Below are positions 9,295 through 59,674 of a DNA stretch of 64,000 nucleotides, piece by piece. Source of the stretch: Mobula hypostoma (Eukaryota). The stretch covers positions 42,410,001 to 42,474,000 of the forward strand of contig NC_086097.1 of the NCBI RefSeq assembly GCF_963921235.1, given 5' to 3'. Both the position numbers and the translations under genes were made by a program. The notes beneath the pieces are model-generated. The model had not been told where the DNA came from, made no database searches, and was given only the letters and a program-made list of their open reading frames with translations. Within the stretch, counting starts at the first letter, position 1. Each line of letters begins with the position of its first letter.

Positions 9295-10729
9295 TGCTTT
9301 AATTCTATAGAAGAGAGTTCAATATTCCCTACATCTAGAGGACCTTTCTGCACTGCCTCCAATGCAAGCAATGAGTTAATAAATTCTCCCTTTCTTTGCT
9401 TGATTTGTTAGTGGTGGACTTATATTTATATTCATTTGCTTTGGACACACCTCATAGCAGAAGCCCATCAGGTGCTTTTGATTTGGTCACAACGAGAAAA
9501 CAATGAAAATTGTATCCTATTATTGGCTATTAATGAAAGGTTTACCATAGCACACACCCTCTTAATTTTAGCAGCCTTTGTCAGATCTGTTTCATCTTTC
9601 TTTTGCAAAAAACCTGAGACCCAGCCTGCTTAATTTTGCCTTGCTGGTCACATCTTCCCAATGCCATGAAGATCCTTGTAAATCTTTATAGCAATTTCTC
9701 TCATGCTTCACTATCTTCTGTCATAGAGGCCACAAATGCATGCATTTCGGTAATAGTGCTCTAACCAATGCTTTATATCAATTCATTGTTTCTCTTTACT
9801 TTTGTATTTCATTCCTCTGGAAATAAACCCTATCACTTTGCAGACCTTTGGCTTGGGAATTTACATTACTACTTTTATTGATTTATCTACCTCTTTGCTT
9901 CTTCACCCCATGAACCATCTTGTACTTCATTATATTGAATTTTACTTCCAGCAAATCTTTTGCCTCTCCTTGGTAACCACTGAGAAGCATTAAATCTACT
10001 TCAGATTTAAGAAGAGCAACATAAGCTGATCATTCTGATTTAAACAATTTGCAGCAGTCGGGAAGGGAGAGGAATAGAAAGTTTTGCTTTGAAACAGAGG
10101 TGATAGATTAGAGAGAATGGTGTTGGTACCAAGGATTTAGTAAGAGAGAGTTTTTTGTGCTCCAGCTTGACCCTCCAACTGCGATGACTTTCTGCTGCTT
10201 CAAGCCCAGCTGAAAAACTAAATGCACGGCCAGGAGAATGAATCCCATTAACACCGTGTTAACCAGAAACCAATTAGTGGAGGCCCTGAGCAGGTACCCA
10301 AGGAACATTAGAGAGTAACATTTGGATCCATTTGTGCATGGATTCCATCCTTAAATTACAATCAAAAGTGGATTTAACTGGGATCACATTGTGCTATTGA
10401 TCATTTCCAAGTGAAATTGTGCCCATCGGGAAATTGACAGGGTACTCCTGAGCACAGCTGATATTTTACTGGAAACAGTTATGTACTATGTGATGGCATA
10501 GCTCACGTGCCACACATTTCCTTTGTCACCGGCATGAATTAGAACTCTTAGGTCTGGCAGCCACAAGAACCAGGGAGCGGGTCGCGTGGCAACTAAAAAT
10601 GTGATGGGAGTTAGCATGTCTGCACTATGCCCCTGGGTTTGCCCACAGCATCTACCAGCTCCAACTTTCAGTGAATGCAGCATCAGTGGTGCTTTGTCTG
10701 AGATGGATAGTGTGAGCACTGGAAGCTTT

Positions 10730-28050: not shown

Positions 28051-31000
28051 TGTTGCGACGAACGAGGCGAACCCAAATGCAGGACACAGTCGTGGAGATT
28101 GAGTTAGGATGCAGACACGGGTGTGAGTGTTGAACTGCAAACAGGAGGGAGCGCAGGAAAGCAGGAGGCAGGCAGAACTTATCTTGACACAGAGCGTAGA
28201 AAGGAAAGCGGCAGACAAAACTTTTCTTAGCACAGAGAGACGGAGTTACTCAGGTAAACCTCAGTGCTAAAATAAAACTTAGAATATTTATCTTGACATG
28301 GAGAGACTGAGTTTCACAGGTAAGTCTCAGTACTAAAGCAAAACTTGAACACACAATCCGAAGCGGCCAGGAAACATTAATTACCACACTGGCAAAACCA
28401 ACGATCTGGCAACTAGTGGGTGCAAAGCTGGGTTCTTATGCTGCAGGTCTTGATGAAAACCAGGTGTGTCGCCATCAAAGGAAATTAGGAGAAAATGGGG
28501 AATTAACGGTTGGGACCATGATAGTACCGCCCCCAACGGGAGCCTCCAGGCAAACCACCAGGCTTGTCTGGATTGTCTCGATGGAAATCTCGGATGAAGG
28601 AAGGGTCCAAGATGAAGGAGCAGGGGATCGAGGTGTGCTCCTAAGGACCGTATCCCTCCCAATCAACCAGGTACTGGAGACCCCTGCCTTGGCGGCACAC
28701 ATCCAGTATTCACCGAACGGTGTAAGTTGGTTAGTCGTCAATGATCCAGGCGGGTGGAGGAGGTTCAGCAGGAGGGCACAAAGGGCTGACAGATACAGGT
28801 TTCCATTGGGAGACATGGAACATGGGATGAATGTACATGGATCTGGGCAGTTTGAGTTTGACCACCAAGGGGTTGATGATGCTCTCGATTTTGAATGGCC
28901 CGAGGTAATGAGGGGTGAGTTTCTTGGGTTCATTCTTGAGGAGGATGTCTTTTGAAGAGAGCCAAACCTTCTGAGCAGGCCGATAGTTGGGCACAGGAAT
29001 TCGATGGCGATCGGCAATCCTCTTGTTGCGGTCAGTTGAGCGGAGCAGGGCTGCGTGTGCATCCTTCCAGACCTTGCGGCACTGGCGGAGGTGGGCCTGA
29101 ACTGAAGGCACAGTGATGTCGTCTTCATGGGCAGGAAACAGAGGGGGTTGATAACCGAGGGAGCATTCGAAGGGAGACATTCTGGTGGCGGTGCTGGCCA
29201 GGGAGTTGTGGGCATACTCCACCCAAGTGAGGTGGGTGCTCCAGGGTGACAGGTTGTTGGCGGATATGCAGTGCAGTGCTGTTTCCAAATCCTGGTTTGC
29301 TCGTTCCGTTTGACTGTTAGTCTGTGGATGGCAACCGGAAAACAGACTTACTGAGGCTCCAAGGGCTTGACAGAAGGATCTCCAGACTTGAGAGATGAAT
29401 TGGGGGCCCTGGTCAGAAACAATGTCAGAGGGAATTCCATGAAGGCGGAAGACGTGATGGACAAGAAGGTTGGCTGTTTCACGGGCTGTAGGGAGTTTGG
29501 GAAGGGCTATGAAGTGCATGGCTTTGGATAAACGGTCCACCACGGTGAATACAGCAGTGTTACCCTGTGGAGGGTGTAGTCCAGTAACGAAATCCAGAGC
29601 AATGTGGGACCAAGAGCGGCTAGGGACAGGTAGAGGACGAAGTAACCCAGCAGGTGGCCGATGGGAGGCTTTTCCACGGGCACAAACAGAACAGGCAGAG
29701 ATGAAGGAGAAAGTGTCAGCATCCATGGTGGGCCACCAGAAATGTCGCTTCAGAAGGAACAGAGTTCGATCGATTCCAGGATGGCAGGCGAAATGAGAAG
29801 TTTGCCCCCACTGGAGAACCTGAGACCAAACAGAGTCAGGCACAAAGAGGTGATTGGGAGGTCCATTGCTGGGTCAGGTTGAGTCCATTGGGGCTCTTTG
29901 ACTATGGATTCGATCTCTCAGGTGAGGTGCAGCCACCACACAAAATGGTGGAAGGGTTGGGAAGGCCCTCCTCAGAGACGTATTGATGAAAGAGAGCATT
30001 GGGCTTCCCATTCGTGGAACCAGGACGATAGGTGAGGGTGAATTTGAAATGGCCAAAAAATAATGCCCAACAGGCTTGGCGGGAATTAAGGCGTTTAGCG
30101 GTTTGGATGTATGCGAGCTTCTTGTGATCCGTCCAGATGATGAATGGATGTTCAGCTCCCTCCAGCCAGTGCCTCCGCTCCTCCAAGGCGGGCTTGACGG
30201 CCAGCAACTCCAGGTTCCAACGTCGTAGTTCTATTCAGCGGTGGATAGACAGCGAGAGAAGAAGGCGGAGGGATGGAGATTTTGGTCTGGGATGGAGTGT
30301 TGGGAGAGGACTGCTCCCCCCCCAGAGTCGGAGGCGTGGACTTCCACAATGAGTTGGCGAGAGGGGTCAAGTTGGACCCGGATGGGAGCAGAGGTGAAAC
30401 GCCTCTTCGGCTCCGAGAAGGCTGAGTCCGCTTCAGGGGTCCAGTGAAAAGGGGTCGCAGGAGAAGTGAGCTGAGTAAGGGGCGCTGTCACCCGGCTGTA
30501 ATCCCTGATGAAGTGACGGTAGAAGTTTGCGAATCCCAGAAATCGCTGGAGTTGTTTGAGTGTCATGAGTTTTGGCCACTCTGCTACAGCCCGGATCTTT
30601 TCGGGATCTGCCCTCACCTGCCCGCTCTCAATGATGTGCCCCAGGAAACTGACGGAATAGGCATGGAACTCGCACTTCTCTGCCTTAACAAATAGCTTTT
30701 TCTCCAAAAGCCTCTGAAGAACCTGAGGGACATGGTGGGTGTGTTCCTGAAGACTACGGGAGAAGATTAGGATGTCAACCAAATAAACAAAAATGAAACA
30801 GTTAATAATGTCCCTAAGGACTTCATTTAGCAGGGCTTGGAAGACGGTGGGGGCATTGGTGAGACCGAATGGCATGACCAGATATTCGAAATGACCGAGG
30901 GGGCTGTTAAAAGCTGTTTTCCATTCATCTCCCTCCCTTATCCTGACCAAGTGATAGGCATTCCGCAGGTCCAACTTAGAGAAAATGGTGGCTCCGTGAA

Positions 31001-31122
31001 GGGGTTGGAAAGCAGAGTTGATAGGGGCAGGGGATACTTATTCTTTATGGTGATGCAATTCAGGCCACGGTAATCAATGCAGGGGTGCAGTGAGCCGTCT
31101 TTCTTCCCCACAAAGAAGAAAC
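28051..31122 (-). mobile_element. Decayed Gypsy chromovirus (Sushi-like): RT, RNase H, integrase, chromodomain, 3' LTR 28051-28523; 5' part lost
   Basis: [65 protein letters not shown]; minus strand near 28620-28680 reads QYLVDWEGYGP. Confidence 0.95.
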
Positions 31123-31655
31123 CTACGCCTCATCATGGCAGTAGAGGAGGCCCTGTATGGACATGGACTAAACTCAAGTTGGAGAAGCAACACCTCATAT
31201 ACCATCTGGGTAGTCTCCAGCCCCTTGGTATGAACATAGAATTCTCCAACTTCCGGTAATTCCCTCCCCCCTCCCTTCCCCTATCCCTATTTCACTCTGC
31301 CCCCTCCCCCAGCTGCCTATCACCTCCCTCATGGTTCCGCCTCCTTCTACTACCCATTGTGTTTTCCCCTATTCCTTCTTCACCTTTCCTGCCTGTCACC
31401 TCCCAGCTTCCCTTCCCCCACCCCTTTATCTTTCCCCTTACTGGTTTTTCACCTGGAACCTACCAGCCTTCTCCTTCCCACCCTCTCCCACCTTCTTTAT
31501 AGGGCCTCTGCCCCTTCCCTCTTCAGTCCTGACGAAGGGTTCTGGCCCAAAACCTTGACTGATCGTTTCCACGGATGCTGCCTGACCTGCTGAGTTCCTC
31601 CAGTGTGTTGTGAGTGCTGCTTTGATCCCAGCATCTGCAGAGTATTTTGTGTTTA
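31123..31655 (+). mobile_element. PLE 3' end (GIY-YIG C-terminus, pyrimidine tract, mutated hammerhead)
   Basis: KLKLEKQHLIYHLGSLQPLGMNIEFSNFR; near reverse complement of 2147-2600. Confidence 0.9.
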
Positions 31656-33994: not shown

Positions 33995-34290
33995 GGAACT
34001 CAGCAGATAAGGCAGCTTCGATGGAGTCATGTGTATGTCTGAGACCCTTCATCAGGACTGGAAAGAAAGGAAGCAGAGACAAGGGTTACAAGCTGCAGTT
34101 GAGACTAGGCTAAGCTGAATATGGGAGGGGAGGAGGTGATGTAAGGAGGAGGCAGAGGTAAAGGGCTGAAGAAGGATTCTAATAGAATTCAGTGAAATAA
34201 AGGGAAGGAGGTGGATAACCAGAAGGTGACGATGGGCAGATCATAAGGGCAGGAGAGAAGGGGTGAGAGGGTAACCAGAATAGAGAATAA
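33995..34290 (-). repeat. Degenerate PLE end
   Basis: gaggaactcagcag..gagacccttcatcaggactg followed by a purine-rich tract. Confidence 0.6.
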
Positions 34291-34904
34291 TTCATTAGCT
34301 TTCCCTTCTGAGTTTTTCATTTGAAGATGTATTTTGGCTTATCTGCCTGTAATAAATAAGCAAGCAGTAAAAATATTTCAGATATCCAACTTCTGAGCTG
34401 GTAAATCTTCACTTATCAGTGCCCAGACGTATGAAAGGGATACTGCAAGAAAAATAATAATTTAATAGAGAGTGAAGTGGTTCATTTGTAGTCAGAAAAA
34501 GTAGGTGTGTAGCATTTTGACCAGTATGGAGTGGAGATTGTAAGATTTACACTTTGGCCGTGCCCTCTCTGTTAAACAAGACAATTCTAAATTACCATCA
34601 GCAACCTTGTGTTTGTGTACTATTAACCTTCTGACATTAAGTTTCTCCTGTAATATAACACAGTTCTTCCTTTCCAAATTAGCTTCCCATACACTTGCCA
34701 CTGAACATGCTTATTAGATTTCTAACCTTCTGCAGCAACAATTAAGTCTGCTTTATCCACATGTCTGAACTGCAGAGAATTTCTAGTCTTTACAGTCTTG
34801 CTAGGGTGAGGGTCGAGCAAGATTGACAGTGACACAGAGATGGGGATTGGCGCTGCCAAAGGAAAAAACATGAGCGGGAGAATGCAATGAGGAAGAGATT
34901 CCTA

Positions 34905-35760
34905 TCAGTTATCAGTGGCTCACACTGCATCATCTGTGGATCTACTGCATCTTGATCTTCTGGATGAGTCTCCCATGAGGTACCTTGTCAAACAATTTAC
35001 TAAAATCTATGTAAACATCATCTTCAGCTCTACCTTCATCAATCACCTTTGGGAGGGAACGTCGACTCAGACCATGAGAGGCCTGCATCGAGCATTTTCA
35101 TGCCTTACAAGGTGGAGATTGGAAGTCTGTGTGGGGCGCCACTCCTCACACAGACACTAGAGCAATGTGTGATTAAGTGCCTTGCTCAAGGACACAAACA
35201 CGCTGCCACAGCTGAGGCTCAAACCAGCGACCTTGAGATCACTAGACAAACACCTTAACCACTTGGCCATGTGCCCAACACCTTTGACACCTCCTCAAAA
35301 CTCAATTAAGTTAGTCAGGCATGACCTGCTCCACAAGGCCATGTTGACCGTTCATAATTAGGGCATGGTTTTCCAATTGCTCATAAATCCTACCCCTAAA
35401 AATTTCCCCAGCAACTTCCCTACCTCTGAAGTGAGGCTTACCAGTCTATGATTTCCAGAATTATCTCTGGTTCCCTTCTTGAATAATGAAACAATATCAG
35501 CTACTTGTCAGTCCTCTGGTAACTCTTGTAGCTAGAGAGGACATGAAGGTATTGGTCCTGGCCCCAGCAATCTCATCTCTTGCCTCTCTTAATGATTTGG
35601 GATGTGTACCATCAGGCCCTGGGGACTTATCACCTTAATATACTTTAAGAAATCCCACGCTACCCTTTTATTGTAATGGCCTAGCAAATTAATATGCTTC
35701 AGACTGATCTCCCTATCAGCCACCGTCTTCTCCTTGATAAGTACTCACTCAGGACCTCAC
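34905..35760 (-). mobile_element. Decayed CR1 RT fragment split by a SINE
   Basis: Reverse complement of KSPGPDG (catcaggccctggggactt) and of the NYRPVSLTS-like region. Confidence 0.75.
35052..35280 (-). mobile_element. tRNA-derived SINE, copy 2
   Basis: Similar to 25313-25533; flanked by a (ca)cctttg duplication. Confidence 0.85.
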
Positions 35761-36059
35761 GGGCTCCCTCCTTTATCCTTGAATGATCCTGTTTGTTTGG
35801 ACTGAGATTGAGGCTATAGGAAGAAAGAGAAAAATGGGTACACTTCCAAGGATAGTAGAATGAACTAGCGTGTTAGAGTAGATGTGACGAGTCGGTAAGG
35901 AGTAGAGCGAGTCACAGGGCAGGATTTATCTGAATGTGTCACTGTGTTTACCTTTCCTGAATTTGCTAGATCTCTGCACTAAATCTAGTACAATACTCTT
36001 GCTACTGATAATCTGAATCACTGTTGCTGCAGTAGATTTCTTCCCCACATACTCTGGAG

Positions 36060-36205
36060 ACTATATGACATAGGAGCAGAATTAGGCCATTTGGCCCATT
36101 GAGTCTGCTCTGTCATTCAGTCATGGCTGATCCTTTTCCCCTCCTTAGCCCCACTCCCCAATATGACCTTAAGACATAGGAGCAGAATTAGGCCATTTGG
36201 CCTGT
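36060..36205 (-). mobile_element. Two short CR1 3' tail fragments
   Basis: gacataggagcagaattaggccatttggcc occurs twice. Confidence 0.75.
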
Positions 36206-36599
36206 CGGCGTCCTGATAGAGGCATGCACCCATCCCTCCAGTTCTCTTTCTGTCCAATCAGTACATCAGGCAGCACATGATCAATCAAGATTCAACCATT
36301 CTGAATCCAGAATGAAACCTCAAACTTCAAATAACTTCTGTGAAAGTCAACAGCATACCTGGAAGTAATATTATAATTTGAGGTACTGCATTTTTTTTTA
36401 AAAAGCCTCAAACAGGATAACATTTCTCCCTTTTCTTTTACTTTGCGCCACTCACTACACCAGAAGTCTATTTCAAATGCTTCCCAGAGTCGTTATACTG
36501 GAGCAATGTTACTTCCAATCATGAAATGGATTACTTGCAACAGTTCATACAGAAGTATTTATATTAAACATTGAATGGATTTTTTACATTGAACTAATG

Positions 36600-37040
36600 C
36601 ACACAAAATGCTGGAGGAACTCAGCAGGCCAGGCAGCATCTTTGGAAAAGGGTACAGTCGGCGTTTTGGGCCGTGACCCTTCGGCAGGACACACTGAACT
36701 TATCAGTTTCAGGTAACTCTCTCCCCAGTCTTCTCTTCCCACATGCATTCATCTGTCCACTTAGTTTTCTACTCCATTTCTTTATCCCTCGGACGTCTTC
36801 CCCCAACTGTACCTTGTGCTCATCATCCCTCCCCACCTGGCTCCATCTGTCACCAACCACCCTCTGTCTCAGCCTCTTTGTACTTTATAAACTGGCAATC
36901 TTCCCTGCTCCCCCTCCGTCCTGAGGAAGACTCTCAACCCAAAATGCCAACTTACATTTTTGCCTCTACAGATGCTTCGTATTTGCTGAGTTCTTCCAGC
37001 TTTGTTTTTTTTTTATTCTGGAGTCTGGCATTTGCAATAT
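36600..37040. repeat. Older fold-back PLE-derived insertion
   Basis: aaaatgctggaggaactcagc at left, inverted gctgagttcttccagc at right. Confidence 0.65.
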
Positions 37041-37230
37041 CTCTAGTTTCCATACAAAAGTAGTTGTTTGGGGAACAGCAAGTTCTCCTGCTCAGGAGCC
37101 TCTAGCACCCTGACTGGGGATGTGATCGGTGTGCTGAACAATGAAGAGAAGCAACAGCTCATGTACAAGCAACACACATAAAAATTGCTGGTGAACGCAG
37201 CAGGCCAGGCAGTATCTCTAGGAAGAGGTA

Positions 37231-37268
37231 CAGTCGACGTTTCGGGCCGAGACCCTTCATCAGGACTA
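37231..37268 (-). ncRNA. Minimal hammerhead ribozyme motif, intact core
   Basis: Minus strand tagtc-CTGATGA-agggtctcggccc-GAAAC-GTC-gactg. Confidence 0.8.
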
Positions 37269-37980
37269 ACTGAAAGAAGAGATAGTAAGAGATTTGAAAG
37301 TGGGAGGGGGAGGGGGAGATCGGAAATGATAGGAGAAGACAGGAGGGGGAGAGATGGAGCCAAGAGCTGGAAAGTTGATTGACAAAAGGGATACAAGGCT
37401 GGAGAAGGGGAGAGGATCATGGGACGGGAGGCCTAGGGAGAAAAAAAGGGGGAGGGGAGCCCAGAGAATGGAGAGCAGGCAAGTTATAGTGAGAGGGACA
37501 AAGGGAGAAAAAAAAAGAGAGAAAATAATTAATTAATTAATTAATAGATAAGGGATGGGGTACAAAGGAAAGGTGGGGCATTAACGGAAGTTAGAGAAGT
37601 CAATGTTCATGCCATCAGGCTACCCAGACGGAATATAAGGTGTTGTTCCTCCAACCTGAGTGTGGCTTCATCTTGACAGTAGAGGAGGCCGTGGATAGAC
37701 ATATCAGAATGGGAATGGGACGTGGCATTAAAATGTGTGGCCACTGGGAGATCCTGCTTTCTCTGTCCCTCTTACTATAACTCCTTGCCCATCCTCTGGG
37801 CTCCCCTCCCCTTTCTTTCTCCCTGGGCCTCCCGTCCCATGATCTCCAGCCTCATTTCCCTTTTGTAAATCAACTTTCCAGCTCTTAGCTCCGCCCCTCC
37901 CCCTCCTGTCTTATCCTACCATTTCGGATCTCCCCCTCCCCACTACCACTTCCAAATCTCTTTCTATCTCTTCTTTCAGT

Positions 37981-38018
37981 TAGTCCTGACGAAGGGTCTC
38001 GGCCCGAAACGTCGACTG
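37981..38018 (+). ncRNA. Minimal hammerhead ribozyme motif, intact core
   Basis: tagtc-CTGACGA-agggtctcggccc-GAAAC-GTC-gactg; stem I tagtc/gactg, stem II ggg/ccc. Confidence 0.8.
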
Positions 38019-38254
38019 TACCTCTTCCTATAGCTGCTGCCTGGCCTGCTGTGTTCACCAGCATTTTTTGTGTGTTGCTTGAAATTCCAGCACCTGCAGA
38101 TTTCCTCGTGTTTGAACTCATGCTCAACTTTACTGGCTTGGGTCCGTCTCCTTCCTGTTTCTGTTGTTCTGCCACATTGACTTGAGCCACAGCAAAATAC
38201 CAGTTTAAGAAATGATTACAACCCTCAGGTGTTAAAATATTTTATAATTGGAGA

Positions 38255-38558
38255 CATCCACTACATAATGTACTGGTTGGGCACAGGAGTACATTCAGCC
38301 AGAGACTCATTCCACCGAGATGCAACACTGAGCGTCATAGGAAGTCATTCCTGCCTGTGGCCATCAAAATTACAACTCCTCCCTTGGAAGGTCAGACACC
38401 CTGAGCCAATAGGCTGGTCCTGGACTTATTTCCTGGCATTTACATATTACTATTTAATTATTTGTGGTTTTATATTGCTTTATTTATACTCTATTCTTGG
38501 TTGGTGCAACTGTAACGAAAACCAATTTCCCTCGGGATCAGTAAAGTATGACTATGAT
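38255..38558 (+). mobile_element. Rex1-like LINE 3' end
   Basis: RCNTERHRKSFLPVAI-like coding end; tail 'ccctcgggatcagtaaagtatgactatga'. Confidence 0.7.
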
Positions 38559-39101
38559 AGGATTTCAAGGAATGTTCAAGAATCACACACAAAATGCTGG
38601 AAGAACTCAGCAGCATCTATACAGGGAAATGATCAGCCAGCTCTTCATCAGGGTCCTGATGCCTGACCTACTATGAAGGGAAATACATTTCAGGCTGAGA
38701 CCTTTCATCAGGACCCTGGTGAAACGTTGACTGTAGATGCTGCCTGACCTGAGTTCCTCGGCATTTTGTATTATTCAAGCTTTCCAGAATCTTTTGTGTC
38801 TAATGATTAAACATCTAATTTCAAAATGAAAACGTAATCTAGTGCAGGTAAATCCTGCTCAGTATGATAGAAACTGTTGGTTCAGACAGTGAATGTGCTT
38901 AGCTGAGGAGACAATGGCACAAAACTACCATTCATGGGATAATGACTCATTCAGAATTTTGTCTAAATGCTGTTAAATGGTATCAGGTCTTCAGAAAGTG
39001 GATGCATACTTGACTTTCATGTTCAATGTTAGCAATTAAAAAAACGCATTACATTCAACATTTGGATCTATCACTAAAACATCCAAATCACTTATTCAAT
39101 C

Positions 39102-39953
39102 TGTTACGCACCCTGTAACTGGGTTGCCAAACCAGCAGAAATGGACCACTTAGTTGGAGTCTGGATTACTGGAACTAAGAAAGTTTTTATTAAAGAAATA
39201 AGTAACACAGTATTCTAATAGTAAGGATATAAATGCAACAGGTTAGCAATGATAAAACACGCATGTACACAGAACTAGGATAATAGGAATCAATCAAGCT
39301 CTATCGCAGTCTAGGGGTAAAATGATCAGTCTCAAGTGACGCAGAGTTCAGTTCAGCTGAGTACAGTTCGCAGTAATCGCTGCTGTGCCGTTGGAGAGAG
39401 AGAGATAGAGCGAATGATGATATTCAAATCAGATTCAAACAGACCTTTGATATTCCTCGCAGTTAGCTTTCGGGCGAGCCCTTTGTAATGTCTTCTGAGG
39501 TCACCGACTGTGACCCCTCTGTTCCGGATACAATCGTTCTTCTGCGGTGAACCCAGCACCCAGGCAAGGGTGGACACACACACCAGGTTCCCGCCGATTG
39601 TACCTTCTCACCCTGTGCGTCTATGGTCGGTTCCGCGACCAGACCTCCAAAAACTCCCACCAACTTGTGGGGGGGGGCACACCGCACTTCCAGGGTCTCG
39701 TTACCTCGTGATCTCGTGGTGTGTCCCTTGCCTTAGCGAACCTGTTCCTTTTATCCCCCTGCTGGGGTATCGCCTGTCCATCAAACTTCAAACAGTTCAG
39801 GTTCAAAGCAATCGGTCTGACAATACTCGGAACTGTGTCTCTTTTCGTTAATCTCTCTCCTCTCTCTCTTATTAGCATTTTGAATGTTTCCCCATTGTCT
39901 CTCTTATCTCTCTTATCGGCATCAATCTTCTGATAACTTGGACTTTTGTCACA
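39102..39953. mobile_element. Solo LTR (852 bp)
   Basis: tgtta...tcaca; exact 4-bp TSD aatc at 39098-39101 and 39954-39957. Confidence 0.85.
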
Positions 39954-40009
39954 AATCAAAGAACTACAGGAAGGGAGATTTTACTAGAATGTTACTACTA
40001 AACATTCAG

Positions 40010-42200: not shown

Positions 42201-43566
42201 TCCAAGGAGGCAGTTTTGCAATAATTAAAGCATTACTTATTAAAAGTACAGGTATATTAGAATGGACAAGCTAGATTTTTCTGATACAGAACAATATTAA
42301 TGGGGGAATTACAGCCATGTCACAAGTCTCTCAGTAAGGTGTCTTTGCAGTGAATTGTGTGGAGGAACAGTGAACTGGATAAATTTGCATTCACATTTTT
42401 GTATGCATGTGCAGCCACTGGAAGCTTTTCAAGTTACTCCATGATAATGGTGTTTGTTGATGTACTGATAATTATTCATTATGAAATGATCAGTATCACT
42501 GACTTGCACAGTCTTTCTCAAAATCTCTCTTCTTTTCTAGAGTTAATAATTCCCTGTTGCCACTCAAAGCTGCTGACTTATATTTTGTGTGATTCCCTGA
42601 GTGCAACAAAGACCACCAATCCTGTACATAAATTCTCCTTCCTTTAAGTGAGCCAAGGAGATCAAATATTAATGGGTAATGAACCCACTAAGTACCTGGG
42701 TGAGTGCAGTCTCTGCTTTTCCTCCTTCCTTGCTGTGAAGATGCATTAAAATATCAACTCATTGTATCACAAGGATCAAAAGCCAATTTCCTTTTCCTTT
42801 AAAGAACTGAGGCTAGTTACCAACACACTGGTGTCATCCTAGTGAAGGCCAGACAACACTGTTCTGACTGTGGCATTGATCCCAAGCTCTTCCCAATATC
42901 TGTGCCTTGTTTTCATCTACACCATGGAACAATCTGGGGACAGTTTATATTTATCCTTCATCATTCATGTAAAACAGTCAACATCTGCAAGGGTAATCTG
43001 CTTCTAAACTTCAGCCTACATTGACAAATGGATTTTGCATTTCTACTCAGTAAAATACAATGGATGTTTTCAACATGTACCCTCTAAAAGTGATGGTGGG
43101 GATAACCGAAACATTTTCTGCTCAAGGCCTCTATTTAATTCATCCATCAAGCTGCAAGCATCATATTTAGCCTTGAGTGTGGTTAAGCCAGATTTGAAAG
43201 GTTTAAAGATTCACACAAAACTGGAGGAATTCAGCTGTTCTCTCCACACTTCTGTGCTTTGGATTCCTGCATCTGCGCTCCCTTGTCTCTGTTTTGAAAG
43301 GCTTATAATTGGTTAGCTTTTATGTAGAGCTGGTTGCACAATGTAGTTAAATGATTTTCTATAATACATGGTGCTTCTGAATCTGACAATCCTGTGCTGA
43401 GGGAAAAGTGTATGAGAAAGATGATTGGGGCTTGTTGATCCTAGGGGGGCAGGGCGGGGGCGCGAGTATGGGGACAGGTGGACAGATGTGTGGTGATGCG
43501 TTATATGAATTCCTCAACAGGAGGACAAAGGATTTCTCAAAAGGAGGGGGTTATGAGCATTCCTTT

Positions 43567-44850
43567 GCAACACACACAAAATGCTGGAGGAACTCAGGAG
43601 ACCAGGTGGCATCTATGGAAAAGAGTACAGTCGATGTTTTGAACTCAGACACTTCAGCAGGACTAGAGAAAAAAACTGAAGAGTAGATTTAGAAGGTGGG
43701 GGAGGGGAGGGAGAAACACAAGGTGATAGGTGAAACCGGGAGGAGGAGGGATGAAGTAAAGATCTGGGAAGTTGATTGATAAAAGATACAGGGCTGGAGA
43801 AAGGGGAATTTAATAGGAGAGGACAGAAGACCATGGAAGAAAGAAAAGGGGGGGAGGAGCACCAGAGGGAGAAGATGGGAAGGCAGGGAGATCAGGTGAG
43901 AGGGAAAAGGGGATGGGGATTGATGAAAAGTGGGGGGAGGGCATTACCGGAAGTTTGAGAAATCGATGTTCATGCCATCAGGTTGGAGGCTACCCAGATG
44001 GAATATAAGGTGTTGTTCCTCCAACCTGAGTGTGGCCGCATCACAACAGTAGAGGGGGCCATGGATTGACATATCGGAATGGGAATGGGAATGGAATTAA
44101 AATGGGTGGCCACTGGGAGATCCCACTTCTTCTGGCGGACGGAGCATAGAAGAAGTAGTCTCCCAATCTATTTTGGGTCTCACCAATACACAGGAGGCCA
44201 CACCAGTCACAGTATATGACTGCAACAGACTCGCAGGTAAAATGCTGCCTCACCTGGAAGGATTGTTTACGGCCCTGAATGGTAGTCTCATCGTGACAGT
44301 AAAGGAAGCCATGAATTGACATATCAGAATTTGTCTCATCGCGACAGTAGAACCTGACAAACTCAGGTTGGAGGATCAACATCTTATATTCCATCTGGGT
44401 AGCATCCAACCTGATGGCATGATTATCAATTTCTCAAACTTCCAGTAATGCCCCCCCCCCACTCAACATTCCCCATCCCCTTTCCCCTCTCTTACCTATT
44501 TCCCTGCCTGCCCATTGCCTCCCTCGGTGCTCCTGTCCCCTTTACCTTCTTCCATGGCCTTCTGTCCTCTCCTATCAGGCTCGCCCTTCGCCAGCCCTGT
44601 ATCTCTTTCACCAAATTCCCGGCTCTTTACTTCATCCCTCCCCCTCCCAGTTTCACTTATCACCTTGTGCTTCTCTCTCCTCCCCCCACCCCACCTTTTA
44701 AATCTACTTCTCATCTTTTTTTCTCCAGACCTGCTGAAGGACCTCAGCCTGAAACGTCAACTGTACTCTTTTCCACAGGTGCCGCCTGACCTGCTGAGTT
44801 CCTCCAGCATTTTGTGTGTGTTGCTTGGATTCCCAGCATCAGCAGATTTT
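43567..44850. mobile_element. PLE with inverted terminal repeats and GIY-YIG fragment
   Basis: Left arm on minus strand (QHFTCESVAVIYC..IGETQNRLGD); right arm 44355-44850 on plus strand. Confidence 0.88.
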
Positions 44851-45114
44851 CTCCTGTTTATGAACTTTCCTTTTCCCTTTTGTCTTTTTTGTGACTGACA
44901 ACCGCAGTTGAATTAAGGACCATGTTTAGCAGCAAAAGTCCAAACAAATCTTGCCCAATGTAGGACATTATTCTCCTAACATGGATATATGCTCCATTTC
45001 ACTTTCAATAGCCTTCCTGCTTTCAATGGGCATGATGGACTTTCGTTTAAGTACTGTCAAAAGTGCCTTCCAAATTTGATCTGTTCTTCTGAAGAAAGGC
45101 CATAAGATATTTTT

Positions 45115-47052
45115 CACTTCTTTTTATGCTGTATATAAATGATTTAGATGATGAAATAGATGGCTTCATTGCCAAGTTTGCAGATGATATAAAGATTGGT
45201 GGAGGGACAGGTAGGATGCAGAAGGACTTAGACAGATTAGGGGAATGGGCAAGAAAATGCCAAATGAAATATAATGTAGGAAAATGCATGGTCATGCACT
45301 TTGGTAGTAGAAATAAATGTGCATACTATTTTCTAAACAGGGAGAAAATCCAAAAATCTGAGATGCAAAGGGAGTTCTCGTGCAGAACACCCTAAAGGTT
45401 AACTTGCAGGTAGAGTAGTTGGTTAGGAAGGCAAATGCACAACACAACACTCCTCTCAACACAGGAGCCCCTCAGGGCTGGGTACTAAATCCGCCCCACC
45501 CCCACCTTTACTCCCTGTGTGCCTATAATTGTGTCGCCACCCACAGCTCTAATCTGCTAATTAAATTTGCTGACGACACTACACTGATTGGCCTAAACTC
45601 AAACAATAGCGAGGTGGTCTACAGGGAAGAAGTCATCTCTCTGACACATTGGTGTCAAGAAAACAACCTCTCCCTCAATGTCACAAATACAAAGGATCTG
45701 GTTGTGGATTACAGGAGGAATGGAGATGGGCTAACCCCTATTGACATCAATGGATCTGGGATTGAGAGGGTAAACAGTTTAAAGTCCCTCGGCATCTACA
45801 TCACCGAGGACCTCACGTGGTCTGTACACACCAGCTGTGTGGTGAAAAAGTCACAACAGCTCCTCTTTCACCTCAGGCGGTTCAGGAAGTTTGGATTGGC
45901 CCACAAATCCTAAGAACTTTCTACAGGGGCACAATTGAGAGCATCCTTACTGGCTGCATCACTGCCTGGTATGGGAACTATACTCCCCTCAATAGCAGGA
46001 CTCTGCAGGGAGTGGTGCAGACAGCCCAGCACATCTGTAGTTGTGAACTTCCCATGATTCAGGACTTTTACAAAGTCAGATGTGAAAAAAGGGCCCGAAG
46101 GATCATTGCAGACCTGAGTCACCCCAACCACAACCTATTCCCATCTGGGAAATGGTACTGCAGCATAAAAGCCAGGACCAACAGGCTCCAGGACAGCTTC
46201 TTCCACCAGGCCATCAGACTGATTAACTCACACTGCTTTGAGTGTACTTCTATGTTACATTGACTGCTTTATTTATTATAAATTTATTATGAATTACTAT
46301 GATTGCACATTGCACAATTAGACGGAGACGTAACGTGAAGATTTGTACTCCTCATGTATGTGAAGGATGTAAGTAATAAAGTCAAGTCAATTCAATTCAA
46401 TGTTAGCATTCATTTCAAGAAGTCTAGAATACAAGAGCAGGGATGTGATGCTGAGGCTTTATAAGGCCCTGGTCAGGCCTCATCTTGAGTATTGTGTACA
46501 GTTTTATGTTCCTCATCTTAGAAGATATGCGCTGGCATTGGAGATGGTCCAGAGGAGGTTCACAAGAATGATTCCAGGAATGAAAGAGTTATCATACAAG
46601 GAACGTTTGATGCCTCTGGGTCTGTACTTTCTGGAATTCAGAGGGGTGAGGGGGGATCTCATTGAAACCTTTCGAATGTTTAAAGGACTAGACAGAGTAG
46701 ATGTGGAAAGGATGTTTCCTATGATGAGAGAGTCTAGGACAAAAGGGAACAGCTTCAGGATAGAGGGGTGCCCATTCAGAACAGAGATGCGGGGAAATTT
46801 CTTTAGCCAGAGAGTGGTGAGTTTGTGGAATTTGTTGCCACATGCAGCTGGGGAGGCCAGGTTGTTGAGTCTATTTGAGGCAGAGAATGATAGGTTCTTG
46901 ATTGGCTATGGGATCAAAGATTACAGGGAGAAGGGTAGGAATGTGATTGAGGAGGGAAAAAAAAGGATCAGACATGATTGAATGGTGGAGCAGACTTGAT
47001 GGGCCAAGTGGCCTAATTCTGCTCCTATGCCTTATGGTCTTATGGTCTTATA
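45115..47052 (+). mobile_element. CR1 RT/3' end interrupted by a Rex1 element
   Basis: YINDLD..FADDIK; ORF 46400..46981 LYKALVRPHLEYCVQF..; tail (cttatggt)2. Confidence 0.92.
45438..46398 (+). mobile_element. Rex1/Babar LINE 5'-truncated copy nested in CR1
   Basis: NTGAPQG.VL.P, KFADDTTLIGL, WCQENNLSLNV; (aattc)n tail; CR1 resumes at 'aatgttagcattc'. Confidence 0.9.
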
Positions 47053-47410
47053 TAGGAGCAGAATGACTTGGTCTCCACAGTGGTCTGTGGCAATGAATTC
47101 TACAGATTCACTACACTCTAGCTAAAGATATTCCACCTCATCTCTGTTCTGAGGCTGTGTCCTCTGCTCCTAGACTCCCCCACCATAAGAAATGTACTGG
47201 CCCAGAGCAATCAAATGGTCCTCACAGATGAAATCTATTATTTCCATAATCATTCTCAAAAACCTCCTCTGGACCCTCTCCAATGCCAACGTGTGTTTTC
47301 ATAGATAAGGGGCCCAAAATTGCTCATGATACTCCAAATGCAGTCTGATTAATGCCTTATAAAGCTTCAGCATTACAACCTTGCTTTTATATTCTAGTCC
47401 TCTCGAAATG
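47053..47410 (-). mobile_element. Deleted CR1 fragment, tail-to-tail with the preceding copy
   Basis: ISRGLEYKSK.VMLKLYKALIRLHLEY on minus strand. Confidence 0.8.
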
Positions 47411-48469
47411 AGAAGACATGGGTGTTGTAGATGAATAACCCCAAAATGAAATCTTCTCTCGAAGACAATGAGCTCAGCATTAACATCCACCCAGAATCAC
47501 TTCTTTACTGTGTTAATATAAAAAACAATGTCTATGCGTTCAGACAGATTGTATGCATATTCACAGACTTTGTGCATTCTGTTCTTAAAACAATTCAAAA
47601 ACCAAAATGATCTCACCCTCCCTCAATCTGTCATTAAAAGGAAGTCATTTAAAAAGATGTTTGCTGTAGCAAGCACTTAAAATATATCATGCTATAATTA
47701 ATAACCATTCATTTCTTGCCAAAATGTGCAGAATGTAGAAACAATGAATGTCTTGTATTGTTATTGTAAATCTGAGTTGAGTACTGACAACTTGAGACAA
47801 AGAGTTTAAGTTATCATGAGAAACTCTAAAATCCAAGCCTGTCCAGCCTACACCAGAATGGGGATACTTTCACAATGGTCCTTCACTGAGTCAACCAGAT
47901 TCCAAGGAACAAATAAGCATTCTTCTTCCTTCCTAGGGAGTTTAATAAAAAGCAGATTTTCCCTATTTTACAGTCGCATTTCTGTGGCATGTTTCCAAGC
48001 AACCCAGTACATGCTTCATGATATCAATGGTTACATCAAAGATTATTTGTCTGCTCTCATTTATCTGTTATACAGGGGATCACTGGACACTGGTCCAGAG
48101 TCAACTTATCCATCCAGGGAGAGTTGCACTGCAAAGAAAAAATCAACTGGACAATTCAGGGGTGCACAAGGTAGGGGTGTGTGTGCGTATTGGGAGATAA
48201 CTACTGAGGTATGGAATTTGGTTATATTTACCTTCTCAGATCAGCTGATCTTGACCTGCTAGTGGGAAGGTTATGGCAGAGAATGAAAGTCCCGCATGAC
48301 ATGATACAACCAGGTGGGTGGGTCAAAATATATCCTGTACACAAGATGGGTATCAGAGCAATTAAGAACTTCAAAGTTTCTCAGTGTCTGTATTAAAAAT
48401 CATTGAAAATGTTAAGAATTATCAAAAATCAATATTACTTTCAAATCTTCTAACTTAAAAACAATAAAG

Positions 48470-52210: not shown

Positions 52211-52853
52211 TCAGCATTACTGCCTTCATGATGTCAGAGAACTGAGCTCTTACAGTCCCAATAACCTCCTAAATTAAAATGTGTTACATTATCATCTTCA
52301 AGTGCCTTTCTTTATACACCCTATCTTATTTGCATGTTTCTCTTGCCAAGAGTAGATATTTGTACAAAAGCACTTTTCTTTCAACATTTCATGTTTGATA
52401 AATGTACGAACAGGAAGACCAAATATTTGACAGCCCAAGGTATACTGATACTGGTGAGATTTAATTTAGTCTGATTCAAAGTAAATAAAATGCTAATAAT
52501 AACTTTTTACAGCATCCACAATAATTAAAACATTATTGTGGACCTATATCCTTTAAAATGTACCTCTATATTTCAATACAACTTAATTTCACTCACAGAG
52601 CTTTCCTCTTGTATTTCATGACACCTGAGTAAATGCATTGAGATTCATAGTTAATACCTTGATGATTTCACATAGCAACTGTCTTTTTATAAGCTAAGAG
52701 TGTCTCTGAACAATTTGTTTAACTTCACATGTCAAATTATGTATCTCAGTAAAATTTAGAAGCAACCATATATGAGCTGTTTAGGAACCATGGCAGCAGA
52801 TACAAAATAAAAACCTACCGGGGGAAGGATAGATGGTTAATGCAAAAATATTG

Positions 52854-53262
52854 AAAATCTGCAGATGCTGGAAATCCAAGCAACACACACAAAATGCTGG
52901 AGGAACTCAGCAAGCCAGGCAGTATCTGTGGAAAAGAGTAAACAGTCAATGTTTTGGGGTGAGACCCTTCATCAGCATCCTCCAGTATTTTGTGTGTGTG
53001 TTGCTCTGGATTTCCAGCATCTGCAGATTTTCTCATCTTTGTGCAGCTACTACACTGTGAAGCCCCTTCCAGGCATGTCTACCCTGAACAAGTTTAAATC
53101 TTCCCTTCAGGAGTTCAGTGAAACCCTCTGTCACTGCTCCCCCTCTGTGACCTCTGCTGCCAGCCCTGATGAAGGGTCTCGGCCCAAAACGTCAGCTATT
53201 TATTCTTCTCCATTGATGCCGCCTGGTCTGCTGAGTTCCTCCAGCATTTTGTGTGTGTTGCT
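52854..53262. repeat. PLE-derived short fold-back (52854-53031) plus a second PLE end (53161-53262)
   Basis: aaaatctgcagatgctggaaatcc / ggatttccagcatctgcagatttt inverted; ctgatgaagggtctcggcccaaaacgtc. Confidence 0.8.
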
Positions 53263-54281
53263 AACACAAAAATAACTTGAGTTTAATGGATATTTCTCAC
53301 TGATCAAAAAAGACAGTTCTGGTGGCAAGGTCTTTGTTGGAGCACAGAGCAGAATGGAGCAGTGCTAGGGAGGGACGAGACATATCTATACAGACACAGC
53401 TAATCAAGAGGTGAATGGAAAATGCCTGGATGTGTGCTTGAACCTCCCTGCTATTCCTGTCCTTGTTAGTGGAAATTGTTTTATGTGCATGACCTTCAGT
53501 CCTTTAATTCCAATCATGAACCTCAATGTTATCCCACTGACAGCCTGATGTTCCATTAGTGTCCATGACAGCCTGGGCATATTATCATTGCTGTCCTCAT
53601 GTCATCCGGCTTGCTTCCTCTCAAGCACCCGCGATTGGATCACCCAGATAACCAGCCGGCAGAAAACTGCGCTTCTACAGTCCCAGCAACTTCCTAACTT
53701 GGAAGGTGTCATGTTATCCAAAATTACAGTCCACACACTAGAAATACAACGTCTCTATAAAAGCCCCTCTGCTATGTTCAGTCTGTTAACAGACTGACTA
53801 CTTTCATAGGGAAACAGAAAAGAGAAATAGGATGATCTCCGGAAGACTGGTTCTTAACAGTAGACTCAAGTGGCATTCAATAGCAAAGTCAATTGACTGA
53901 TTCGGAACACTGAACTCATTAGTGTTACAATTCCCAACTTATGGAGTAAGTTGAGTATACTCCATAACTCCCTTGACTTGTGCCTTCTGATCAGTGGAAA
54001 GACTTTGAAGTATCAGGAGATGAATGAATCTCCATAGGATGCAAAGCCTCAGACTTACTCTTGTAGCTGGTCTAGTTAAAACCTTAGGCAATAATAAATC
54101 TGGGATACAGCTTTGAAGAGCAGATATGCACTGCAGATATTCTGACTACACCTGTGGCCAAAATCATTTGCATAAGATAATGAGGCCTGATTCCAGATGC
54201 TGGTTTTAGAATGTCAAGGCAACCAATTTCAGCAAAATTTTTAATCTTTTTCCACAGTGGGATTTAGGGAGGTGCATGCTA

Positions 54282-54376
54282 CAGGTTGAGTGGCCCTTAT
54301 CCAAAAATCCAAAAACCGCTGAAATCCAAAATTTTTTTGAGTGCTGACGTGATATCACAAATGGAAAATTCCACAA
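54282..54376 (+). mobile_element. Tigger/pogo terminal fragment (Tigger4-like)
   Basis: ta|caggttgagtggcccttatccaaaaatcc..tttttgagtgctgac..tggaaaattccaca. Confidence 0.6.
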
Positions 54377-55059
54377 GGCCCTGTGAATCAATGAATCACC
54401 AGTAATCTCAGGATTTGGACGCCAAAGCAAACACTTCCAATGGACCTCCCTTAAAGCTAACCAGTCAGAAGCTTCTACTGCCAAACTGTTCGCCTGGTTT
54501 TGTACCAGCCACCAGATCAAGACGTCTAATCAATATCCATTCGGGCCCCAGAGGAGTAGATAAGCCTGCATTCTGAGGAGACAGCACCCTCAACTGCGCA
54601 CTGATGAGGGGTCCTCAACTGGAGCTGAAACGTCTGGAAACATTTTGCCAAGCTCTGCAATCAACCAAACTTCCAATCATCCTGAAATATGATTGAAATA
54701 TTGACTAACAAGTTAGCAGGCATAAGTAAATGCATAGAACTGTTTTTTTTTCTTATTGCAGTTACTTCAAAAAATGCACGGAATTTATTGGCATTTCATA
54801 AAATCCAGTAATTGAGAAGGGCTCAGTGATATTGATCAGGGCTGACATTAGGACATTAAATCAGCATCATACCTCTTATGCATATGCTAGTTCATCATCT
54901 CATCTCCAGGATGTTCCTATGTGCAAGAGTTCCTCAGGGTAGTGCCCCATGCCCAACCATCTTAATCTGCTTCAGTAATTACCTCTTTCCATTGTAAGGT
55001 CAAAAGTGAAAATATTTGATGATAGCAAAGTATTTAATTGATTCCTCAGAAATAAAGCG

Positions 55060-56228
55060 GATGTGTGTACTTGGATTTTCAGAAGGCCTCTGACACTGTG
55101 ATGAACACAAGGCTACGTAACATGGTATTAAAGGAAAGACAATAGCACTCATAGAGCATTGGCTGATAGGCAGGAGGCAAAGAGTGGGAATAAAGGGAGC
55201 CTTTTCTGATTGGCTGCTGATGACTAGTGGTGTACCACAGGGGTCAGTGTTCTGTTCACTCCTTCTTACATTGTATGTCAATGTTCTGGATAATGGAATT
55301 GACGTCTTTGTAGCCAAGCTTGCAGACAGTATGACGATAGGGGAGGTGCAGGGGTAGTTTTGAGGAAGCAGGAAGGCTGCAGAAGGACTTGAACAGATTA
55401 GGAGAATGGGCAAAGAAGTGGCTAAAGGAACACAGTGGCAGGAAGTGTCTGGTCATACACTTTGGTAGAAGGAATAAAAGCACAGACTATTTTCTAAAAG
55501 GGGAGGAAATTCAAAACTGAGGTATAAAGGGACTTGGGAGTCTTTCTGTAGGATTCCCTAAAGGTTAATTTGTATGTTGAGTCGCTGATGAGGAAGGCAA
55601 ATGCAATTAAGTTAGCATTCATTTTGAAAGGACTGGAATACAAAATCAAGGATGCAACGCTGAGGCTTTATAAGGCATTGGTGAGGCCACACTCGGGGTA
55701 TTGTGAGGTGTTTTCGGCCCCTTATTTAAGAAAGGATTTGTTGACATTGGAGAGGGTTCAGAGGAGATTCACAAAAATGATTCCAGGAATGAAAGGTTTA
55801 TTGTATGAGGGTCATTTGATGGCTCTGGGCCTAAACTCACTGGAGTTTAGAAGAATGAGGAGAATCTCATTGAAGCCTATCGAATATTGAAAGGCCTAGG
55901 TAGAGTGGATGTGGATAGGATATTTCCTTTGGTGGGGGAGTGTAGGACCTAAAGGCACAGCCTCAGAATAGAGGAATGTCTATTTAGAACAGAGATGAGT
56001 AGGAATTTCTTTAGCCAGAGGGTGGTGAATCTGTGGAATTCATTGCCATATGCAATTGTCATTTGGGCAGAGATTGATAAGCCTTGGATTAGTTGAGACG
56101 TGAAAGGTTATGGGTTAGAAAACAGGTAATGGGTTTGACAGGTAAATGGATCAGCCATGATGAAATGGCAGAAATGACTCAGTGGGCTGAATAGCCTTAT
56201 TCTGCTCCTATGTCTTATGGTCTTATAG
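55060..56228 (+). mobile_element. CR1 RT and 3' end
   Basis: YLDFQK, SGVPQGSV, LYKALVRPH, ERVQRRFTKMIPG; tail gtcttatggtcttat. Confidence 0.92.
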
Positions 56229-58095
56229 TCTAAAGCAGTCTCTGCAACAATCAGGTATAAGCTGATAAGAAACAGATTATATTCACATCACAAGTGAAAG
56301 TCTCCTGAACACTTAATAATGGTTACATTTCCCCACTTTCAACAACTGGATTATAATTGACCAAAATTTTAGCAAGATCTGGCCATTAGAGTCTGACCTT
56401 GGTATCCTATGGAGATTGACTCACTTGCTGACACCTCAAAGTCTTTTCACCAATCAGAAGGCACAGGTCAAGAGGGTAATGGGATACATTTAAAGAGCAG
56501 TATACACATGTACGGTTGAATGACAGTAAACTAAACTTGAACTCTCTCAGCCACTGGCGCATTGTCTGAATTATGCCCTGATTATCTGGCTACTCCAGCA
56601 ACTTTCAAAGCTTCTACTCTCTATCATCAGGGTAGCAGCAGCAAGGAAGAGGCACCACCTGCTAGACCCTACCTGAGTTGTATCCACTCCTGACGAGAAT
56701 AGATTATTCTTCTTCTCTGTGTTCAAAATCCTGGAGTGCGTGCATCTTCACTACAACTGAGGAGGTTCCCGATGGCACAGCACCTCATACAGCTCACATC
56801 AGCTGATCAGGAGACTAGAGATGACAGCAAGCAGCTCTGATGTGCACTGTATAAAGATGCTGTGAACAGTGACTTGGTAATCAGTGATGAAAATGTGCAT
56901 TGGCCTGACCATTGAACCTGAGGCTGGCAGATGCTGTGTATGACATCAATGTCAGAATGCTGACTTCTTCATCAATATTTTTTTTCTATATCTCAGTACG
57001 ATATGTTCCTAGTTTTTTTGGTGTAAATGTGCACAAAATGTGATGGCCATACCCAAAACTCAAATTGTGTATGAAAAATGGGTGCTTTTGGACCCATTAT
57101 CTGGGCTTACAAGTAGATTCCATTGTAACTTCATGCAAGCAGTCAATTTCCATCAACTTGAAACATCAATGAGTTATTTCTGGCATACTCAATTTGTAAC
57201 AACTTTTCTTGATGTAGACTCTATTCTTGAGCCATTTTATTGCTAAACAAGTTAAAATGTTGATGTTCATGACTGAGGAATATTTCTCACAATTGTTCTC
57301 TTGTTGTGAATAAGAGGTTTTCATCAGCACTTTGGATGGTAGAAATGTTCATAGCAACTACATAAGGGGTTCAGTTCTGAAGATTAACCAACATGGATTG
57401 GGTGAACTAATTGAATGTACCTCCCGATGGCTGAGAATAAAACGGCCTTTGAAACACCCACAAACTGCTAAATCCAATCAGCCACCGAAGTTGAAGATCA
57501 TCAAAGTGAGATAGGCAAGATATGTCAAAAAGTAGGAATTAAATCTCATCAAAAGTGACTTTAATGGGCTTCTTTGCAGCAAAATAGAAAAATTCACCAG
57601 AGATTATCTGTTGAGCGGAAGAGATACAAATGTAGTGCTACCTATCAACTTGACATATTTATGGTTTGATAACTCACAACAGAGCACTGGCATTACTCAT
57701 TTTCCTTCTGATGTCTCCCCTTCTATTCCATCACATTCCTTTTGAAATTTAATGGCCTGGACTTCCTGTCAAATTAGAGGGTGATCCCAATGACATTCGC
57801 CGCTACTAAAGTGTAAATCACCCAGAAATTTATGACAAGGAAGAGAAGCCATGAATTTCAAATTATTATGATTAGATGGTTAATTTGCACTTCCAACGCC
57901 ATCCTTAAATAAAAAGCATCAGCTCACCTTGAAACTTTGTGAACTTGCATTCTTATAAATTAATAACTAATTAGACTTGGTGGAGAAAGTCGCTTACCTT
58001 TTTGAGTACAGAAATTTATCTTACTGCAAAGGTAATTAGCTTCATCAGTCCAGAAAGGGAACAACTCAAACAACAATTTTCTTACAGGTAACAAT

Positions 58096-58653: not shown

Positions 58654-59155
58654 CAATATTGTATGGAGCCTATCATCAGCATCAACAGAGCTTTATGAAC
58701 TAAATAAAAATACAGAAGGGATAAGCAGAGCAATCATAAACAGAGCAGCACTGGCCACTACTAGGCCAGTGGTGAGAGTAGAAGCGACAGGCTTTGTCTC
58801 AAAAGAGGCTTCGGCTAGAAAGAGGTGTCAGTTCTGTGTAAAGCATCTGTTAAGGTTCCCTTTTTATCTTTTTTTCCCTCACTAACTGTATCATTTAAAT
58901 GGCTGTGGTGTGCTCTTCATGCTGGATGTTGGAGAACTGGGAGACCCAGAGTCTCCCAGGGAACTACATCTGCATGGAGTGCATCTGGCTGCAGTTCCTT
59001 GAATTCCATGTTAGGGATCTGGAGCAGCAACTGGATGATCTTCGGCTTATACTGGAGAGTAAGGACATAATCGATCAAAGTTACAAGGAAGTAGTCACCC
59101 TGAAGTTGCAAGAGGCGAGTAGCTGGGTGACCGTCAGGAGAAATGGAAATAGGCA

Positions 59156-59674
59156 ACACTCACAACACGCTGGAGGAACTCAGCAGGTCAGGCAGCATCC
59201 GTGGAGAAGATTGGTCGACATTTCAGGCCAGAACCTTTCGTCAGGACTGTAGAGGGAAGGGGCAGAAGCCCTATAAAGAAGGTGGGGGGAGGGTGGGAAG
59301 GAGAAGGCTGGTAGGTTCCAGGTGAAAAACCAATAAGGGGAAAGATAAAGGGGTTCCGCCTCCTTCTACTACCCATTGTGTTTTCCCCTATTCTTTCTTC
59401 ACCTTTCCTGCCTATCACCTCCCTGCCTCCCCTCCCCCACCTCTTTATCTTTCCCCTTACTGGTTTTTCACCTGGAACCTACCAGCCGTCTCCTTCCCCC
59501 CCTCCCCCCACCCTCTTTATAGGGCCTCTGCCCCTTCCCCCTACAGTCCTGACGAAGGGTTCCGGCCCGAAACGTTGACCGATCTTTTCCACGGATGCTG
59601 CCTGACCTGCTGAGTTCCTCCAGCGTGTTGTGAGTGTTGCTTTGACCCCAACATCTGCAGATTATTTTGTGTTT
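59156..59674. mobile_element. Fold-back PLE insertion in CR1 ORF1 with 13-bp TSD
   Basis: TSD atggaaataggca at 59143-59155 and 59675-59687; ~200-bp inverted arms. Confidence 0.93.
59544..59581 (+). ncRNA. Minimal hammerhead ribozyme motif
   Basis: cagtc-CTGACGA-agggttccggccc-GAAAC-gtt-gaccg. Confidence 0.72.

Follow-up and report, generated by a model that had tools for sequence, protein, structure and literature searches.

Penelope-like elements (PLEs) that encode an endonuclease (EN+) are described as inserting with an inverted, 5'-truncated copy beside the 5' end and a tail of 30-40 bp at one end (Craig et al. 2021, PMC8557442). Arkhipova et al. 2013 (PMC3846280) report terminal repeats in inverted orientation flanked by target duplications of 8-10 bp and give head-to-head as the most frequent arrangement. 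The minimal hammerhead ribozymes (min-HHRs) of PLEs have an extra base between positions 9 and 10.1 and a palindromic segment 15.2-16.2, and are also reported as opposite-strand pairs with about 100-700 bp between the two motifs (Cervera and De la Pena 2014, PMC4209133); in the same source, cleavage by a single minimal Schistosoma PLE hammerhead was undetectable and that by dimers was low. The PLE protein of Anolis, a predicted dimer, cuts and extends both target strands, with two internal RNA start sites delimiting the tail; insertion in vitro takes place without hammerhead cleavage, and the hammerhead cuts only in the presence of its protein (Frangieh et al. 2024, PMC11167929).

The locus analyzed here is a further copy of this known insertion type with a known motif, real and ordinary, and a first-pass annotation had described it correctly. 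Very probably it represents a single dead insertion, in which two 5'-truncated copies of a high-copy EN+ PLE stand head to head and the hammerheads are passengers of the family, predicted to be buried in double-stranded RNA (dsRNA). It comprises the following features.

37155-37168, plus strand: probable 14-bp target-site duplication, left copy, matching 38114-38127 at 10/14 positions
37166-37765, minus strand: longer 5'-truncated Penelope-like copy, with the end of the endonuclease frame, a pyrimidine-rich 3' region, a hammerhead and an end without a tail
37231-37268, minus strand: minimal type I hammerhead with U at position 7, predicted cut after 37236
37616-37765, minus strand: end of the GIY-YIG endonuclease frame
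37764-37765, no strand: head-to-head inversion junction, a 2-nt microhomology common to both copies, no spacer, read directly
37764-38113, plus strand: shorter inverted 5'-truncated copy, with 3' region, hammerhead and tail
37981-38018, plus strand: minimal type I hammerhead with C at position 7, predicted cut after 38013
38079-38113, plus strand: one-sided tail of 32-35 nt, missing from the left arm
38114-38127, plus strand: probable 14-bp target-site duplication, right copy, matching 37155-37168 at 10/14 positions

The locus resembles published EN+ PLE insertion units (PMC8557442, PMC3846280) in its inverted, head-to-head copies, 5' truncation, 30-40-bp tail on one side, probable short duplication and microhomology joint. 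It differs from them in that both copies are truncated, with neither a reverse transcriptase (RT) nor a full open reading frame, in its 2-nt microhomology junction without a long palindrome, and in its ray-type host; the probable duplication is about 13-14 bp here, compared with 8-10 bp in the Adineta examples of PMC3846280. The motifs agree with the metazoan PLE min-HHRs of PMC4209133, being type I with a 5-bp helix I, an unpaired base between 9 and 10.1, the G10.1-C11.1 pair and no helix III, whereas helix II has three firm pairs and a 6-nt loop here and 7-8 bp in Schistosoma. No mention of cartilaginous fish was found in that source, whose supplements may hold chondrichthyan motifs. Poseidon of Anolis carolinensis (PMC11167929) likewise carries a hammerhead in its terminal repeat, and its tail, which arises from two reverse-transcription start sites with both strands cut and extended, can be likened to the layout of the locus. 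Poseidon belongs to another clade, one without the CX2-5CxxC linker found in relatives of this family, and activity was shown there, whereas the present case is known from sequence only. Non-LTR retrozymes, with a chondrichthyan example among them, also have a type I hammerhead from PLE terminal repeats (bioRxiv 10.64898/2026.07.22.740005). In these the repeats are in same-strand tandem, which makes a cis dimer possible; here the motifs lie on opposite strands, with one CUGANGA box per strand in 37160-38120 rather than the at least two same-strand tandem hammerhead units of a non-LTR retrozyme. A search of mostly non-subscription literature, without supplements, revealed no publication dealing with the present ray family or with formation from two templates.

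Layout, identity and abundance of the element

The insertion spans 945 bases (37169-38113), with limits set from the target duplication and the tail; the limits first annotated, 37169 to 38112, agree with these to within one base. The 10/14 match of the flanking 14-mers has p = 0.024 against 5000 random right flanks, and its register and length are the same as those of two clear duplications in the window, the whole 64-kb stretch of DNA that was analyzed. The final three bases of the left duplication copy also match the end of the left arm. The paired arms (37166-37501 and 37764-38081) differ by substitution in 26 of 317 aligned columns and have gaps in 20 further columns, and the complete fold-back is predicted to form one hairpin with a minimum free energy of -628 kcal/mol (z = -26.8, 20 shuffles). 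The arm alignment and the folding energy thus confirm the fold-back of two inverted arms that had been annotated.

The arms are unequal, a feature absent from the first-pass annotation. The DNA between them belongs to the left copy, and the right copy begins in the pyrimidine-rich 3' region, abutting the 5' end of the left copy. The antisense frame of the family matches the stretch as far as 37765.

An endonuclease remnant, which the annotation had also not recorded, identifies the longer copy. The minus strand at 37765-37616 encodes 50 residues, 47 of them identical to P0004, a protein named from Mobula hypostoma. The frame is broken by a 7-nt deletion absent from family contigs, which end loose at 37617/37619 and carry the letters deleted in the left copy. 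The 50-residue remnant itself has no match in Pfam; P0004 matches PF01541 with E = 4.6e-4, short of the curated cut-off, and a longer copy in the window (2500-2805) gives a sub-threshold GIY-YIG match with E = 8.7e-4. A search with this longer piece matched 18 of 80 candidate proteins, and the six top-ranking ones are named from Hypanus sabinus and Mobula hypostoma. Two full-length, more distant relatives, P0012 and P0014, which share 45-46% identity with this endonuclease piece, have RVT_1 hits and combine the RT, its DKG motif, a CX4CxxC linker and a C-terminal endonuclease in one frame; the RT with its DKG motif is absent from the truncated locus. Reading by eye, P0004 and P0005 contain a C-X4-C-X2-C linker, in a region that lies outside the locus, and P0005 has a CxxC between the GIY and YIG boxes followed by two later histidines (CCHH motif). 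A CX2-5CxxC linker between RT and endonuclease is assigned by PMC8557442 to Neptune and Nematis and not to Penelope or Poseidon. From the linker and the CCHH motif in its close relatives, the clade is likely Neptune.

The annotated Penelope-like origin is upheld by the endonuclease remnant, the related proteins and the hammerhead unit of the family, and, judged by its sequence, the locus is a dead, 5'-truncated and frameshifted EN+ PLE in a ray-type genome. Penelope RT/endonuclease sequence also makes up most or part of two further ray proteins, P0001 and P0002, which bear the names of kinase-domain gene and mucin-2 isoforms; in these the gene annotation has probably read through into copies lying in introns.

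Searching the 64 kb with a hammerhead-unit profile yields 22 hits, roughly one unit every 3 kb, and the hammerhead is not a chance match, because it is the repeat unit of an abundant family. Orientation was analyzed for 19 units, after short fragments beside another hit (at 24622, 38685 and 52978) were dropped. Among the ten neighboring pairs within 1.3 kb, six are head to head, three tail to tail and one in tandem (permutation p = 0.007). The locus is ordinary, since the same head-to-head layout is frequent in the window and is already in print. In run X1, 132,970 contigs match 37550-38570 (1,021 bases, including an unrelated repeat from about 38255), and the summed depth, which is not a copy number, is 1.0-1.1e7 on the hammerhead versus 0-9 on the unique flank. 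Run X15, guessed to be RNA, contains family contigs and has zero depth on the unique flank 38145-38249, a result without bearing on expression. No family copies were found in metagenome contigs, searched with two patterns, or in viral contigs.

Several other arrangements in the window touch on this family. The cleanest fold-back, at 59143-59687, belongs to a second subfamily; its arms have 14 differences in 201, its junction has a 3-nt microhomology, and the left motif has lost G10.1-C11.1. Between its inner limits (59153-59674) it has the same one-sided tail as the focal locus and a perfect duplication (13/13, p < 0.001). The fold-back at 43553-44873 is older, with 61 differences in 460 and a rearranged junction containing short repeated pieces; it too has the one-sided tail (43567-44859), with a duplication of 12/14 (p < 0.001). 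The A6-to-C change present in the hammerhead core of both its arms recurs in the unit at 36585-36691, which suggests that a source lineage spread with a variant or dead core. A tiny fold-back at 52850-53290 joins a full minus-strand unit to the last ~55 bases and tail of a plus-strand copy, with a further plus-strand unit 130 bp away. The plus-strand copy at 31127-31655 carries at its 5' end 38 bp of the endonuclease frame in inverted orientation and adjoins gypsy-like RT and integrase frames (28734-31037, minus strand).

Other repeats are also present. One that is very abundant (38255-38560; depth ~1e6 in all four runs) is inserted in the right flank of the locus and may be absent in organism C, whose contig match ends at 38257. 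Across a tandem repeat of ~33 bp at 8100-9408, several frames of both strands run without a stop for 270-430 codons, and inverted pairs of other repeats, with 74-81% identity, lie at 46410-47411, within LINE-like RT frames, and at 53962-56482. No host exon was identified in the window, where the long listed frames appear by eye to be transposon-derived or of low complexity.

Formation of the two arms

Both copies were likely laid down in one event. By analogy with the Anolis enzyme (PMC11167929), a dimeric RT-endonuclease would cut the two target strands ~14 bp apart, and reverse transcription would start on each strand, at the outer RNA start site on one and at the inner site on the other, which would account for a tail on one side only. 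Both cDNAs would stop early and be joined through microhomology, fill-in of ~14 bp would yield the target duplication, and the arms would subsequently decay neutrally, by about 4% each. If the hammerhead has a role, it would be in the source element's tandem RNA, through dimeric or protein-assisted cleavage, and not at this locus. Self-priming on an antisense template, the alternative proposed in PMC3846280, is conceivable here and is not favored, as the junction has no long palindrome.

The 26 arm differences can be compared with the family at large. At nine of them the family (at least 85% of depth) has the letter of the left arm, which indicates decay of the right arm; three are family-variable, one has a third letter and 13 have no listed variant. 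An organism-C contig matches the right flank at 38131-38257 with 7 differences in 127 and then continues with 124 letters unlike the stretch, which fits an empty site. An excess divergence of the arms (26/317) over this flank (7/127) was considered and rejected as not significant (p = 0.42). Some observations count against a single insertion with passenger hammerheads. The 10/14 duplication is weak, more decayed than the 8% divergence of the arms, and both cores are whole here, with nine of the ten CpGs in the two motifs preserved, yet 11 of 15 near-full units in the window have a core defect.

A variant of the single event, possible and on balance unlikely, is that a dimeric enzyme priming both strands copied the arms from two RNAs, or from two terminal repeats of one tandem source. 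The Anolis protein, extending both strands as a predicted dimer (PMC11167929), offers a precedent. Nine family-variable sites are listed in the arm overlap. At three (37887, 38031 and 38052) the arms carry opposite common family alleles, at five the left arm agrees with the right and at one it has a third letter; three discordant sites in nine have p of about 0.03 under one template, and 4.3 would be expected for a random family member. Across four runs the shares of the two non-CpG alleles are also correlated (r = 0.95, p = 0.05). Without CpG sites, however, the discordance falls to 2/7, with p of 0.03-0.11, and the tally covers listed variants only. The arms share an allele at 37866 that 98% of the family depth lacks, where 0.42 would be expected by chance, and both arms of the 59153 fold-back have an allele missing from two other copies. 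Later gene conversion from the huge family would produce the same pattern. The discordance is therefore a weak hint that fits two templates, gene conversion or chance.

Two separate insertions, the later one landing inverted against the 5' end of an older copy, are improbable. The weak duplication would be consistent with such a history, as would the distribution of private changes among the listed variants, with one private substitution in the 215-nt middle of the left copy versus 11 rare letters in the right arm. But 13 of the 26 arm differences have no listed variant and are probably left-arm changes, and two independent events would have to leave 5' ends that abut exactly, with microhomology, and a tail on one side only. 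The register of the duplication, moreover, is as expected (p = 0.024), and other sites in the window repeat this layout with clear duplications. A single event thus remains the preferred reading.

Hammerhead motifs in the fold-back

Position-by-position reading finds, as annotated, a complete minimal hammerhead in each arm. In the plus-arm motif, the 5' strand of stem I (37981-37985) is followed by CUGANGA (37986-37992) and an unpaired A (37993); stem II (37994-37996/38003-38005) is closed by G10.1-C11.1; and the 3' half consists of GAAA (38006-38009), the palindromic ACGU (38009-38012), C17 at 38013 and the second strand of stem I (38014-38018). The minus-arm motif (37268-37231) is built in the same way, with C17 at 37236, and differs from its counterpart at position 7 only. 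Both motifs have a stem I of five pairs, a stem II of three, an ACGU palindrome replacing helix III and a GUC triplet, and they contain the elements that define a minimal type I hammerhead: C3-A9, G12-A15.1, U16.1, H17, helices I and II and the palindromic 15.2-16.2. Nine of ten CpG positions survive in the two motifs on a simple reading of the sequence. Direct reading thus places the motif in both arms, while the Rfam hammerhead families give no match at the gathering threshold in the whole 64-kb window, a blank that is plausible for a motif without helix III.

All 12 core positions and G10.1-C11.1 are intact in both arms, as in 4 of the 15 near-full units of the window; in the 11 others a core base or this pair has been lost (G12 in 8). 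Excess conservation of the core, a prediction made beforehand, holds across these 15 copies, where non-CpG core columns vary less than others (8/135 versus 155/1068, p = 0.005), and does not hold between the arms, where an untouched 13-base core has P = 0.33. High arm identity around the hammerhead (67 columns with at most one difference) was likewise rejected as a signal (scan p = 0.26). Low core variation together with frequent core loss points to selection on source elements and not evidently on inserted copies.

The first-pass annotation had further suggested that any transcript crossing the locus carries one ribozyme and might switch between cleavage and dsRNA. The first part is borne out for either direction by the single CUGANGA box on each strand. 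Since the 3' ends of the copies point outward, a crossing transcript makes the complementary arm ~715 nt before the sense ribozyme. The predicted probability of stems I and II, from folding energies that exclude tertiary contacts and protein help, falls from 0.83-1.0 in isolated 48-mers to 0.06-0.11 in a single copy and to 0.000 in the whole fold-back and the nascent transcript alike, and forcing the hammerhead stems within the fold-back costs 72 kcal/mol. The 48-nt monomers fold with z of -0.9 and -0.5, and in the lowest-energy 48-mer fold (-14.1, compared with -8.1 for the open form) the cleavage triplet is base-paired with the core. With one core box per strand, a double hammerhead cannot form in cis, and a double hammerhead modeled in trans reaches -15.1, a lower stability than the -28.2 of two monomer folds.

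These predictions do not sustain the second part of the suggestion, and it is very improbable that the host uses the locus in this way, with a crossing transcript either cut by its ribozyme or folded into dsRNA. In its favor, both cores are intact, the isolated 48-mer is predicted to form both hammerhead stems, and an RNA initiated between the two motifs would not contain the complement to its own ribozyme. Intact cores are nevertheless expected by chance (P = 0.33), the stems are predicted to be rare even in a single arm, the antisense arm always comes first, a double hammerhead is impossible in cis and disfavored in the trans model, and the window is without an identified host exon. The hammerheads are thus predicted to be buried in the hairpin and not to act as a switch.

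Least credible is an assembly artefact of a collapsed repeat: none of the contigs listed on 37550-38570 spans the inversion junction, which therefore rests on the assembly, but the arms differ by 26 substitutions and several indels, a duplication flanks them, a 139-nt contig of single-copy-like depth matches the right arm with one difference (run X1), and 0.49-0.79 of the words of 34100-40000 are found in runs of two organisms.

Significance for Penelope-like elements in rays

The single locus carries little weight, as one dead copy in a vast family with a published layout. A switch between cleavage and dsRNA that a host used would be notable, and nothing at the locus supports one. Any transcript reading through the locus would most likely form a long hairpin, a putative substrate for A-to-I editing or small-RNA pathways by analogy with other inverted repeats.

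Collectively, the fold-backs are fossils of the Penelope integration mechanism, with a bearing on the formation of head-to-head copies and on the role of the hammerhead. If the arms were indeed copied from two templates, the arm ancestry of the duplication-bounded fold-backs that ray genomes contain in vast numbers could, compared genome-wide, separate two-template priming from self-priming on one antisense template. Where they are transcribed, the fold-backs are likely a large source of dsRNA in ray genomes.
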